Source of the DNA: Escherichia phage vB_EcoM-RPN187
DNA length: 64,000 nucleotides
Sequence record: OL770074.2
Direction: 5' to 3' (one strand)
Shown in pieces: positions 25,664 to 43,126 of this stretch. Every line of letters begins with the position of its first letter. Within the stretch, counting starts at the first letter, position 1. The position numbers and the translations under genes were made by a program. Under the pieces are notes generated by a model that was given only the letters and a program-made list of their open reading frames with translations, was not told where the DNA came from and made no database searches.

Positions 25664-25692
25664 AAAAAAGCCCCAACCGTAAGGAAGGGGCT
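25664..25692 (-). terminator. rho-independent terminator (GCCCC...GGGGC plus U6), copy 1
   Basis: Minus strand: GCCCCTTCCTTACGGTTGGGGCTTTTTT just after the rI stop; same element at 41024-41052, variant at 41570-41598. Confidence 0.6.
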
Positions 25693-41023: not shown

Positions 41024-41052
41024 CCAAAAAGCCCCAACCGTAAGGAAGGGGC
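41024..41052 (-). terminator. rho-independent terminator, copy 2 of the GCCCC...GGGGC-U6 element
   Basis: Same string as 25664-25692, just after the stop at 41059. Confidence 0.6.
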
Positions 41053-41058
41053 ATTCTA

Positions 41059-41523
41059 TTATTTAATTTGTTTAGCAGACCAGATACGGTCTTTAATAAG
41101 TTTTTGGATATCTTCAACATACTCAAGGCTATGAGCGTGAGGATTATCTTTGAAGCTATGTGCTCGTGCCAGTTTCTGGCCTTCTGTTTTGATTACTAAA
41201 AGCTCTTTAAGAATTGCTTCATACTTAGAAATAATTCCTTTGGCGATATTTTTTTCTTGAGCGGCTTTAGGGTCCGCTTTTGGCGCAGGTGCTTTACCTG
41301 TAGCTTTCTGGAACAATTCACCTGATGCAGCTAGGCTTTTAAAAACTCGGCTAACAGTATTAGCATTAGTAAAACCTTCGGCTTTAAAATCTCTAATAAA
41401 ACGGAAACGTTCTTCATCAGAGGCGTCTTTGTAAGAATATTTACCTGCTCTAATTGCTGCAATCGCAGCGGCTTTTACATCTGAACTAGATTGTTCAGTC
41501 AAAAATTCAGCGTATGATTTCAT
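41059..41523 (-). CDS. capsid-targeting-leader protein (154 aa), unassigned internal-protein candidate
   Basis: N-terminus MKSYAEFLTE-Q with the L-x-E site; Ala/Lys-rich body; isolated between two terminators. Confidence 0.5.
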   Translation of the reverse strand: MKSYAEFLTEQSSSDVKAAAIAAIRAGKYSYKDASDEERFRFIRDFKAEGFTNANTVSRVFKSLAASGELFQKATGKAPAPKADPKAAQEKNIAKGIISKYEAILKELLVIKTEGQKLARAHSFKDNPHAHSLEYVEDIQKLIKDRIWSAKQIK

Positions 41524-41569
41524 GTTGCTTTTCCTAAGTTAATTAACTTATCTATTTATTATTATGCAA

Positions 41570-41598
41570 AAAAGCCCCAACCTTTCGGAAGGGGCTAT
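41570..41598 (-). terminator. rho-independent terminator, variant copy (end of the tRNA/stable-RNA unit)
   Basis: Minus strand: GCCCCTTCCGAAAGGTTGGGGCTTTTTT. Confidence 0.55.
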
Positions 41599-41644
41599 GC
41601 CTTGCGGCAACCTTGTCGGGGTTCCACCTGCTAAGGCAAGTGTT

Positions 41645-41795
41645 TGTACGAAACGCCGGGATTCGAACCCGGTTATTAAGCAGTTGACGCTACTCAATAT
41701 TTTTAAAAGGCCATATCTCGACCATATCCGAACGTTCCGTCAAAAACGCTACTCGGCTTACGGCAAAGATATTTCCTCGAATCGATAATTCTGTG
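41645..41795 (-). ncRNA. candidate tRNA-like stable RNA (about 140 nt), analogous in place to T4 RNA species C/D
   Basis: No ORF; minus strand carries a perfect T-arm CCGGG-TTCGAAT-CCCGG followed by CGTTTCG, which can pair with GAAACG about 140 nt upstream; lies between tRNA-Arg and a terminator. Confidence 0.3.
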
Positions 41796-41907
41796 CGCCG
41801 TTTCAGCTGTGATAGTAAAGAACCAGAACACAGTAAAACTGTGGGAGGAACTATACTCCAGGGAACATCAGTCCGACGACTTACCGGTAGCGACCCGGTT
41901 TCTTGTT

Positions 41908-41983
41908 TGGTCGAGGCAGTAGGGGTCGAACCTACGACCTAGGACTTAGAAGGTCCTTGCTCTTCCTTCTGAGCTATGCCTCG
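41908..41983 (-). tRNA. tRNA-Arg (anticodon UCU)
   Basis: Hand-folded cloverleaf: acceptor CGAGGCA/TGCCTCG, D-arm GCTC/GAGC, anticodon loop CUUCUAA, T-arm GTAGG-TTCGACC-CCTAC, encoded CCA. Confidence 0.8.
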
Positions 41984-41987
41984 GATT

Positions 41988-42062
41988 TGGCGGACATGCA
42001 TGGATTCGAACCATGGACCAATTGATTAACAGTCAACTGCTCTACCACTGAGCTACACATCC
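41988..42062 (-). tRNA. tRNA-Asn (anticodon GUU)
   Basis: Acceptor GGATGTG/CATGTCC (two G-U pairs), D-arm GCTC/GAGC, anticodon stem GTTGA/TCAAT with loop CUGUUAA, T-arm CATGG-TTCGAAT-CCATG, CCA. Confidence 0.7.
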
Positions 42063-42066
42063 AAAT

Positions 42067-42153
42067 TGGTTGGGAGTGATGGAGTCGAACCACCTGAGTC
42101 GCAATGACAATGGATTTACAGTCCACACCGCTACCTCTACGGGATAACTCCCC
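42067..42153 (-). tRNA. tRNA-Tyr (anticodon GUA), class II with long variable arm
   Basis: Anticodon loop CUGUAAA; T-arm GGTGG-TTCGACT-CCATC; CCA encoded; the acceptor stem pairs only with a mismatch or bulge, so the 5' boundary is uncertain. Confidence 0.55.
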
Positions 42154-42162
42154 AAATTAATT

Positions 42163-42237
42163 TGGTGGCCCTGGGTGGAATTGAACCACCATCTGGCGAT
42201 TATGAGTCGCTTGCTTGAACCTTCCAGCTACAGGGCC
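42163..42237 (-). tRNA. tRNA with anticodon CAU (Met or lysidine-type Ile)
   Basis: Acceptor GGCCCTG/CAGGGCC, anticodon loop CUCAUAA, T-arm GGTGG-TTCAATT-CCACC, CCA; occupies the T4 tRNA-Ile position. Confidence 0.7.
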
Positions 42238-42238
42238 T

Positions 42239-42314
42239 TGGTGCTGATTGACGGAATCGAACCACCGACCTTCTCATTACAAGTGAGTTGCTCTACCTAC
42301 TGAACTAAATCAGC
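42239..42314 (-). tRNA. tRNA-Thr (anticodon UGU)
   Basis: Acceptor GCTGATT/AATCAGC, D-arm GTTC/GAGC, anticodon loop CUUGUAA, CCA encoded. Confidence 0.75.
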
Positions 42315-42319
42315 AAAAC

Positions 42320-42410
42320 TGGCGGAGGCGATAGGATTTGAACCTATGAGTCGCCGGAGCGACTGCCGGTTTTCAAGACCGGTGCATTAAACCACTCTGC
42401 CACGCCTCCA
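42320..42410 (-). tRNA. tRNA-Ser (anticodon UGA), class II
   Basis: Acceptor GGAGGCG/CGCCTCC, anticodon stem CCGGT/ACCGG with loop CUUGAAA, long variable arm, 91 nt. Confidence 0.8.
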
Positions 42411-42411
42411 G

Positions 42412-42485
42412 TCTCCATACAAGGATTTGAACCTTGGACCTCCTGATCCCAAATCAGGCGCTCTACCAAACTGAGCTACACGGAG
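42412..42485 (-). tRNA. tRNA-Pro (anticodon UGG), CCA not encoded
   Basis: Acceptor CTCCGTG/TATGGAG, D-arm GCTC/GAGC, anticodon stem CCTGA/TCAGG with loop UUUGGGA, T-arm CAAGG-TTCAAAT-CCTTG; one nucleotide separates it from tRNA-Ser. Confidence 0.75.
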
Positions 42486-42495
42486 TAAATTAAAT

Positions 42496-42569
<74 letters not shown>

Positions 42570-42574
42570 AAATT

Positions 42575-42661
42575 TGGTGCGAGAAGTGGGACTCGAACCC
42601 ACAAGGAAATCATTCCGCAGCATTTTAAGTGCTGTGCCTTTACCAATTTGACCATTCTCGC
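42575..42661 (-). tRNA. tRNA-Leu (anticodon UAA), class II
   Basis: Acceptor GCGAGAA/TTCTCGC, anticodon stem CAGCA/TGCTG with loop CUUAAAA, variable arm GGAA-TGAT-TTCC, T-arm GTGGG-TTCGAGT-CCCAC, CCA. Confidence 0.8.
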
Positions 42662-42662
42662 G

Positions 42663-42735
42663 CTGGGAATAAAGGACTCGAACCTTTGCATCCTGGAATC
42701 AAAATCCAGTGCCTTACCAACTTGGCTAATTCCCA
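42663..42735 (-). tRNA. tRNA-Gln (anticodon UUG), CCA not encoded
   Basis: Acceptor TGGGAAT/ATTCCCA, D-arm GCC/GGC, anticodon stem CTGGA/TCCAG with loop UUUUGAU, T-arm AAAGG-TTCGAGT-CCTTT; one nucleotide from tRNA-Leu. Confidence 0.75.
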
Positions 42736-42832: not shown

Positions 42833-43126
42833 TTACCATTTATGATAATACATATTTACGATGCATTCAAGACCCAAAGGATTCTTGAAAATATCATATT
42901 CAAGAGGACCTTTTTCCGTTTCAATAAAGAAATCAAAGTTAACTGTGTTAAATTTACGGTCTTCCTTTACTAATTTAACTTGAGAAGATGAACGGTCAAT
43001 GTAAACCTTTTCAACTTCAAAACATGTTAAAATGCCATAATCATCAATCAAGGCTTTAGCCGCATCTTGATCATATTTATATCCATTTTCAATGGATGAT
43101 ACTTTCGCATAAAGAATCATTATCAA
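42833..43126 (-). CDS. hypothetical protein (97 aa)
   Basis: Coding-strand ORF with 4-nt overlap. Confidence 0.4.
   Translation of the reverse strand: MIMILYAKVSSIENGYKYDQDAAKALIDDYGILTCFEVEKVYIDRSSSQVKLVKEDRKFNTVNFDFFIETEKGPLEYDIFKNPLGLECIVNMYYHKW

Follow-up and report, generated by a model that had tools for sequence, protein, structure and literature searches.

The rnaD and rnaC stable-RNA genes behind a Tequatrovirus tRNA cluster: folds, distribution, and possible roles

The 64,000 nucleotides (nt) analyzed from Escherichia phage vB_EcoM-RPN187 (OL770074.2), called the window below, belong to a T2/T4-like coliphage (Tequatrovirus) and carry a cluster of ten transfer RNA (tRNA) genes on the minus strand. 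Directly 3′ of this cluster, positions 41599–41907 of the same strand hold, by sequence and position, the orthologs of two T4 genes for stable RNAs, rnaD (species 2 RNA) and rnaC (species 1 RNA), which are followed by a conserved trailer and a predicted intrinsic terminator (Table 1). A preliminary description of the stretch had proposed one or two T4-like stable RNAs; two are found, at the same place as the annotated rnaD and rnaC with which they align. The motifs that it quoted all read 5′ to 3′ on the minus strand.

Genes and features of the locus

The annotated rnaD and rnaC of RB3 (KM606994), Aplg8 (KT184308), T4T (HM137666), and X03016, the original record of the T4 tRNA region, can be aligned with the stretch base for base, and all four records share the gene order tRNA-Arg, rnaD, rnaC, terminator. 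rnaC is identical to its RB3 counterpart at 139 of 139 positions and to that of T4T at 137 of 139, and rnaD has 96 positions identical to T4T rnaD. The two RNAs are separate, with their boundary at 41791/41784, and a tRNA-like acceptor/T-arm end is present in rnaC only. In X03016, species 1 is two bases shorter than in T4-genome-style annotation: it starts with the C of CGAUUCG, where the acceptor-like stem begins, and stops at the U after CGUUUCG, the discriminator position. At gathering thresholds Rfam returned the ten tRNAs only, a permissive scan of 41400–42000 gave nothing credible and no family at threshold, and Rfam 15 gave no match to rnaC or rnaD; the covariance models R1 and R2 score the window's rnaC at 165.2 bits and its rnaD at 127.5 bits. 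By sequence and position, the region is the known T4-type rnaD plus rnaC, and the identity, anatomy, and processing of the two, taken jointly and with function left aside, are held with high confidence.

A query that spans 41540–41990, from tRNA-Arg to beyond the terminator, shows 99.8% identity with Escherichia phage AV112, and the region query matches 774–811 phage records, nearly all from Tequatrovirus and its relatives on Escherichia, Shigella, and Yersinia. Six copies of the T-loop motif GGNTCGANTCC are present in the window (chance expectation 0.14), all on the minus strand between 41659 and 42684; five lie inside called tRNAs and one in rnaC. Compared with shuffled sequences, the minimum free energy (MFE) fold reaches a z score of −4.55 for the rnaC part and −4.74 for the whole 351 nt. 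Annotation of the site varies among GenBank records of T4-like phages: many carry one to three coding sequences (CDSs) labeled “hypothetical protein” over rnaD/rnaC or leave the stretch unannotated, few annotate the two genes (RB3, RB5, RB7, RB9, RB68, Aplg8, T4T, and X03016), and one labels the site “tRNA-OTHER.”

The preliminary description had stated that the stretch contains no open reading frame (ORF) of any size, which is incorrect, as ORFs of 74, 49, 49, 42, and 37 amino acids (aa) overlap it. The existence of ORFs of 37–74 aa and the CDS annotations of many records (sometimes two or three at the site) are what a reading as small-protein genes can draw on. The 74-aa ORF, however, is only 34 aa long in T4, RB3, Aplg8, and VR7 and is without a PHROG family match, and substitutions in the region track base pairing, not codons. 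The probability left to this reading is close to nil.

Table 1. Coordinates of the cluster, the two RNA genes, and their structural elements in the window
Feature	Coordinates	Strand	Remarks
tRNA cluster, n = 10 (Gln Leu Gly Pro Ser Thr Met Tyr Asn Arg)	42735..41908	minus	ARAGORN and Rfam
tRNA-Arg (UCU), last of the ten tRNAs	41908..41983	minus	Upstream boundary of the feature; ARAGORN; Rfam tRNA model 66.9 bits
rnaD (species 2 RNA) ortholog, 116 nt, T2-type	41906..41791	minus	RB3 and Aplg8 annotations via alignment
rnaD P1 hairpin ACCGG-GUCGCUA-CCGGU	41883..41899	minus	Compensatory changes in 5/5 pairs among 36 distinct homologs
rnaD P2, 5′ strand G[U]CGUCG	41874..41880	minus	Pairs with CGGCGC 41800..41795
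rnaD P4 hairpin CACAG-UUUUA-CUGUG	41829..41843	minus	Within the T2-type insert; kept in T2-type Tequatrovirus, PsgM04F, PBES02, and L128
rnaD P2, 3′ strand CGGCGC	41795..41800	minus	Followed by ACAG (T4: ACCA)
rnaC (species 1 RNA) ortholog, 137 nt	41784..41648	minus	X03016 boundaries
rnaC, T4-genome-style annotation, 139 nt	41785..41647	minus	Alignment transfer
rnaC acceptor-like stem, 7 positions, 5′ strand CGAUUCG	41778..41784	minus	Pairs with CGUUUCG 41655..41649
rnaC long-arm apical loop UUGACG	41738..41743	minus	Partner in predicted 6-bp loop-loop helix
rnaC arm 2, 10 bp	41699..41674	minus	Loop CGUCAA
rnaC arm 2 loop CGUCAA	41684..41689	minus	Other partner in predicted 6-bp loop-loop helix
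rnaC T-arm CCGGG-UUCGAAU-CCCGG	41656..41672	minus	Stacked on acceptor 3′ strand 41655..41649, then discriminator U 41648
Conserved 3′ trailer, about 50 nt	41647..41596	minus	Two small hairpins
Trailer hairpin 1 CACUUGC-CUUA-GCAGGUG	41642..41625	minus	Followed by linker GAACCCCGACAAGGU
Trailer hairpin 2 UGCC-GCAA-GGCA	41609..41598	minus	After linker GAACCCCGACAAGGU
Predicted intrinsic terminator of the tRNA/stable-RNA operon, GCCCCUUCC-GAAA-GGUUGGGGC + U6	41595..41568	minus	Read from sequence

Folds and distribution of rnaC, rnaD, and the trailer

Judged by covariation, rnaC is a four-way junction of an acceptor-like stem, a long arm, a 10-base-pair (bp) arm, and a T-arm. Thirteen rnaC sequences aligned with plain MAFFT gave an RNAalifold consensus of 43 pairs, 26 of them with compensatory changes. 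For 26 distinct sequences from about 12 genera, aligned with model R1, 91.9% of cells are paired (37–46% with slid partners) and 33 of 50 pairs show compensatory changes, values reached by none of 500 shuffles; alignments made to covariance models (A5, A8) bias such pair counts toward the modeled structures, and plain MAFFT alignments (A3, A6) recover the same helices. In the acceptor-like stem, two positions are U·U in the window and in T4-like phages; they become U-A and C-G in Tegunavirus and U-A and U-A in PM2, and an A-U pair is replaced by G-C in nine sequences. The T-arm that the preliminary description had picked out is present (41672..41656), and a 3-bp AGG/CCU helix leads to the long, interrupted arm.

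That description had closed the acceptor stem differently, by pairing CGUUUCG with an upstream GAAACG. The two are indeed complementary, and the pairing appears to be used in the MFE fold of the unprocessed stretch, but the covarying partner of CGUUUCG is CGAUUCG at 41784..41778. With GAAACG (41804..41799) and CGUUUCG (41655..41649) as its acceptor stem, the region would form a single tRNA-like RNA of about 155 nt, a reading favored by the perfect complementarity and by the MFE fold of the 351-nt stretch, which appears to use this stem. GAAACG lies inside annotated rnaD, however, where it overlaps the 3′ strand of helix P2 and the preceding internal loop, and its CG is part of the covarying P2. 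Furthermore, there is no GAAACG where rnaC follows a tRNA, the 3′ strand there covaries with the rnaC 5′ CGRUYCG, and the 5′ end of species 1 in X03016 is the C of CGAUUCG. A single long RNA is given a minimal chance, and it and protein coding are both essentially excluded.

The apical loop of the long arm and the loop of arm 2, UUGACG/CGUCAA, are read as a loop-loop (kissing) helix in rnaC. Its cells are 99.4% paired, with two independent double changes, UUGGCG/CGCCAA in Marfavirus and UUGAUG/CAUCAA in Tegunavirus. These are the only lineages with a change at the central positions of the helix, and in them both loops change together; PM2 differs at outer positions only and keeps four of six pairs. 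A metagenome scan for rnaC variants at the invariant G-C pair of the helix gave nine matches, none of them real. Covariation cannot separate cis from trans, and it would be fitted equally well by loops that pair between molecules and yield dimers or larger assemblies in place of an intramolecular contact. The arms are unequal (about 22 bp plus internal loops as against 10 bp), and contact within one molecule would need a sharp bend, for which the internal loops of the long arm could nonetheless act as a hinge. The UUGACG/CGUCAA duplex by itself is, moreover, weak (−5.5 kcal/mol), and assembly between molecules is considered improbable.

Homologs of rnaC were found in Karamvirus, Moonvirus, Tegunavirus, Gelderlandvirus, Winklervirus, Kagamiyamavirus, Kanagawavirus, Gaprivervirus, Marfavirus, and Pectobacterium phage PM2. 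In those genera rnaC stands apart from rnaD, between tRNA-Trp and tRNA-Gly or between tRNA-Phe and tRNA-Trp, with spacers of about 6 nt, and is thus placed as though it were one more tRNA unit. A weak R1 match in Citrobacter phage Moon (L013 1071–1192) proved to be ordinary tRNA sequence. The rnaC linker CUUUUAA was considered as a mimic of the tRNA-Lys anticodon loop and rejected, as part of it is base-paired and the linker varies between genera. In five relatives from IMG/VR (L026, L033, L034, L035, and L036), rnaC and the AAUUAU spacer behave as a present/absent cassette: rnaD (...GGCGCACCG) runs straight into the trailer (AACACUUGCC).

Comparison likewise casts rnaD as a 5′ hairpin, P1, followed by one long irregular helix (P2-P2b-P3) and a swappable insert. 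Across 36 distinct sequences the fraction of paired cells is 92.7% (30–43% when slid), and compensatory changes occur in 16 of 20 pairs. After P1, the consensus has an invariant AAGUCGUC(G/C), whose G[U]CGUC(G/C) part pairs with a 3′ (C/G)GGCGC and thereby forms P2; further in follow a 4-bp P2b, an invariant unpaired CCCUG, and P3, which closes a central insert that is wholly different between lineages. P2 is paired in 100% of cells, with G-C changed to C-G in 12 sequences and to A-U in two. The two further hairpins that had been noticed in the preliminary description, CACAG-UUUUA-CUGUG (41843..41829) and ACCGG-GUCGCUA-CCGGU (41899..41883), are present, and both belong to rnaD. A K-turn in the internal loop GACUGA/GAAA was considered and rejected, as the Karamvirus copies are without tandem G·A pairs.

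BLAST searches, first with the window and later with distant copies, placed rnaD far outside the T-even group: in the Vequintavirinae A7_1 and UPEC06, after tRNA-Met, and Certrevirus PBES02; in the phapecoctavirus-like phages PsgM04F and phiWec188, before tRNA-Thr; in Karamvirus and Jiaodavirus, between tRNA-Asn and tRNA-Asp; and in Moonvirus, Marfavirus, and PM2. In other genera it stands alone among tRNA genes, with spacers of about 6 nt. The T2-type insert of the window is 81% identical over 89 nt to the PsgM04F/phiWec188 copies. Since it is closer to these phapecoctavirus-like copies than to T4, the sequences suggest that inserts have been exchanged between phage families. About 160 records match the query on the T2-type insert, as compared with about 810 that match rnaD overall. 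No homolog of rnaC or rnaD was found in 5,426 complete E. coli genomes or 72,556 plasmids. A loose rnaD pattern gave at least 120 matches in bacterial genomes, mostly of high G+C content; none of the first 100 scored with R2, which marks them as chance matches, and copies in bacteria may still exist.

After P2, most rnaD copies continue with ACC and one base, where the window has ACAG and T4 has ACCA. Because the 3′ ends of relatives read ACCG, ACCU, ACCC, or ACAG, an encoded CCA belongs to T4 itself and is no defining trait of the rnaD family. In its sequence the rnaD end resembles a tRNA 3′ end, though the encoded CCA is not conserved.

Further variation is seen at both ends of rnaD. In copies L039, L060, L068, L089, L103, L113, L128, and L131 (Vequintavirinae and others), P1 is replaced by another 5′ domain that shares the motif GCCCAGAUGG and is expanded to about 60 nt in some copies. 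Between rnaD and tRNA-Asp of Karamvirus/Jiaodavirus (L037 575–713, L038, L040, and L010) lie about 130 unannotated nt that start with the hairpin CCGAAAGUU..CUUUCGG and may be another RNA of the tRNA cluster.

The trailer downstream of rnaC is near-invariant in T4-like phages and lies directly 3′ of rnaD in the rnaC-free relatives (L026, L033–L036). A copy in Erwinia phage Cronus (L009 601–653) is 87% identical over 53 nt and has no rnaC before it. One pair of trailer hairpin 2 changes from G-C to A-U in the variant-trailer relatives L030, L033, L035, L036, and L026, trailer and terminator together fold with a z score of −2.76, and the trailer could be a third stable fragment from the transcript's 3′ end. 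The terminator named in the preliminary description is there, a G+C-rich hairpin with a U-run (GCCCCUUCC-GAAA-GGUUGGGGC-UUUUUU), and Aplg8 and X03016 carry a terminator annotation at the homologous hairpin. A simple terminator scan missed the hairpin at 41595..41568, presumably owing to its internal U·U mismatches. Near-identical hairpins (GCCCCUUCCUUACGGUUGGGGC) stand at 41031–41052 and 25670–25691, minus strand, after other minus-strand genes; to judge from these copies, the genome of the window uses the terminator module more than once. In Cronus, some 250 nt of structured, unannotated sequence lie between two tRNA-Met genes (L009 660–906), with a long hairpin closed by UUUAAUUGAUAACAGUG/CACUGUUAUCAAUUAAG and then a tRNA-like 3′ half, GGGUUCGAGUCCCAGCGAGGGGUAACC, the end of which pairs with CACCCCUC.

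Upstream, at 41988–42237 (minus strand), tRNA-Met, tRNA-Tyr, and tRNA-Asn lie 4–9 nt apart where T4 has the segB homing-endonuclease gene before tRNA-Arg, and the window phage has ten tRNAs as against eight in T4. tRNA-Tyr is barely over the Rfam threshold (30.9 bits vs 29). The late-promoter motif TATAAATA occurs at 43081 and 43389, upstream of the cluster, and it is no more frequent in the window than expected by chance.

Maturation and possible function

As modeled on T4 and on tRNA maturation in E. coli, rnaD and rnaC would both be excised from a primary transcript common to the tRNAs. RNase P would cut before C41784, which would generate the 5′ end of rnaC and release the 3′ trailer of rnaD. 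Exonucleases would trim both 3′ ends to the closing helices, that of rnaC to the discriminator U41648 and that of rnaD after the RNase P cut. The host CCA-adding enzyme would then complete rnaC, so that 137 encoded nt plus CCA would give 140 nt, which is reportedly the length of species 1 RNA as sequenced in 1975. In T4, the eight tRNAs and the two species are part of a single precursor of about 1.75 kb, and transcription stops past species I RNA (PMC2330249). A Northern blot showed RNAC of T4, and the two were classed as late RNAs and called “small regulatory RNAs” of unknown function (PMC9697503).

The only phenotype found for either gene comes from the T4-like phage BW-1, which was evolved on the semi-permissive host E. 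coli ECOR34 (PMC12685909). All three evolved lines shared a single single-nucleotide polymorphism (SNP), a T-C transition at 164264 that the authors placed in rnaD, and virulence on ECOR34 rose from 0.17 to 0.98 (PMC12685909). BW-1 (OR125554.1; L048) has a T2-type rnaD like that of the window, with one base different in the P4 hairpin. The plus-strand T at 164264 is an A of the RNA, within CACAG-UUUUA-CUAUG, and its change to C turns this A into G and CUAUG into CUGUG. By its position in the predicted fold, the SNP restores the third base pair (C-G) of P4, and the paired state is found in the window and in every other T2-type copy examined. The BW-1 result suggests that rnaD is important on some hosts but not on K-12.

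One speculative reading of both RNAs, tentatively preferred here though its probability is well short of even, is that rnaC and rnaD are trans-acting accessory RNAs that mimic tRNA and occupy a host factor that binds or cuts tRNA. It is proposed because rnaC has a tRNA-like end, because loops and internal loops are strictly conserved, because the rnaD insert is swapped between lineages round a fixed core, because of the ECOR34 result, and because no counterpart exists in the E. coli genomes and plasmids searched. Such a role would leave rnaC and rnaD dispensable on laboratory hosts and useful on some wild hosts.

The two RNAs might instead act mainly in cis, as tRNA-shaped spacers that organize processing by RNase P and RNase E and shield the 3′ end of the precursor, with the stable products as by-products. 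Both RNAs always lie inside tRNA clusters with short spacers, and rnaC has exactly the elements that RNase P recognizes. In addition, the MFE fold of the unprocessed RNA appears to pair GAAACG of rnaD with the 3′ acceptor strand of rnaC, which could couple their maturation, and rnaC is missing from some relatives. Against a spacer role, loops, internal loops, and the kissing helix are kept far beyond what a spacer would need, the rnaD core is invariant across unrelated phage families with different neighboring tRNAs, and RNAC is detected on Northern blots and both RNAs are classed as late RNAs (PMC9697503). A role mainly in cis is rated as unlikely, below that of trans-acting tRNA mimics.

A role as base-pairing regulatory small RNAs is rated lower again and is regarded as quite unlikely. 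The segments that pair would be the unpaired CCCUG and GACUGA of rnaD, the CCUCC of the insert, and the rnaC linker UUUUAAAAAU, with host or phage mRNAs as their targets. Invariant single-stranded motifs, the resemblance of CCUCC in the T2-type insert to an anti-Shine-Dalgarno sequence, and the term “small regulatory RNAs” (PMC9697503) are in keeping with it. No target has been identified, however, and the terminator hairpin and U-tail usual in Hfq-dependent small RNAs sit past the trailer, at the end of neither RNA.

The proposal of trans-acting tRNA mimics can be sharpened into a more specific one, itself unlikely as it stands, in which the RNAs are counter-measures against a host factor that targets tRNA. 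rnaC would serve as a tRNA-shaped decoy, locked or multimerized by its covarying loop-loop helix, and rnaD, which has a core common to unrelated families of large coliphages and inserts swapped among them, would be a host-range determinant. If the counter-measure reading is true, the BW-1 result would be the first phenotype reported for rnaC or rnaD. The functional evidence concerns rnaD only (the P4 base pair of BW-1 on ECOR34).

Several points weigh against the account given here, in addition to the bias of model-made alignments. rnaD alone does not fold better than shuffled sequences (z −1.1). It ends in ...GCGCACAG where T4 has ...GCGCACCA, and the T4-like encoded CCA is absent: the 3′ terminus reads ...GGCGCACAG in the window and ...GGCGCACCA in T4. 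A stable rnaC transcript of about 140 nt has been shown in T4 only (Northern blot, PMC9697503). The processing steps are drawn from T4 and partly from literature of the 1970s–80s. As to function, some natural relatives are without rnaC altogether, reviews describe the roles of rnaC and rnaD as unknown (PMC3014915), and the BW-1 SNP could act instead via processing of the tRNA precursor.

Comparison with known systems

The species 1 and 2 RNAs of T4 have been known since the 1970s and are annotated in several T-even genomes, among which the window copy is an ordinary one, and their function has been obscure for about 50 years. In the searchable literature, no report was found of covariation-tested rnaC/rnaD folds, of the kissing helix, of rnaD in unrelated coliphage families, or of the BW-1 SNP as restoration of a base pair. 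With the folds, the kissing helix, the spread of rnaD, and the base-pair reading of BW-1 at hand, the old question of function would become testable. The comparative structures give concrete mutants that can be tested, in the acceptor/T-arm and kissing loops of rnaC and in the core and insert of rnaD, and the ECOR34 SNP offers a host on which a phenotype of rnaD can be measured.

In T4, rnaC is the same gene at the same place, last of the tRNA operon before the terminator, and has the same acceptor/T-arm end. It differs from the window copy by two substitutions that keep pairing, G·U to G-C in the long arm and U-A to U·G in arm 2. T4 rnaD likewise stands directly after tRNA-Arg, and its 5′ part of about 49 nt (P1, AAGUCGUCGGACUGAUGUUCCCUG) and 3′ part of about 25 nt (AUCACAGC.GAAACGGCGCAC) are nearly identical to those of the window. 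The differences lie in the central insert of about 45 nt, which is replaced in the window by the T2-type UUCCUCCCACAG-UUUUA-CUGUGUUCUGG, and in the encoded 3′ end, ACCA in T4 and ACAG in the window.

Canonical tRNAs (RF00005) share with rnaC an acceptor stem of seven positions on a 5-bp T-stem, the UUCGAAU loop, and the discriminator base. rnaC also fills a tRNA slot in the operon, and of the two stable RNAs it alone has an acceptor stem coaxial with a T-arm that carries GTTCRANYC. Unlike a tRNA, it has neither a D-arm nor a 7-nt anticodon loop and carries two long, loop-loop-joined arms instead. ARAGORN calls no gene in 41599–41907, and the Rfam tRNA model has no match there, the best score being that of tRNA-Sec (16.6 bits vs a threshold of 47). 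A transfer-messenger RNA (tmRNA) was not called by ARAGORN either, and the Rfam tmRNA_permuted score, 10.1 bits, stays below the threshold of 47; rnaC differs from tmRNA in its architecture and has no tag reading frame.

An acceptor/T-arm minihelix on a body that is not that of a tRNA is likewise found in the tRNA-like domain of tmRNA, in bacterial YrlA, in the vtRNAs of the herpesvirus MHV68, and in the tRNA-like structures of plant viruses. As in these mimics, maturation of rnaC probably uses RNase P and the CCA-adding enzyme. The fully paired, covarying 6-nt loops of rnaC are akin to the loop-loop complexes of ColE1 RNA I/RNA II and of the HIV-1 dimerization site, with the difference that both rnaC loops lie within one RNA of 137 nt.

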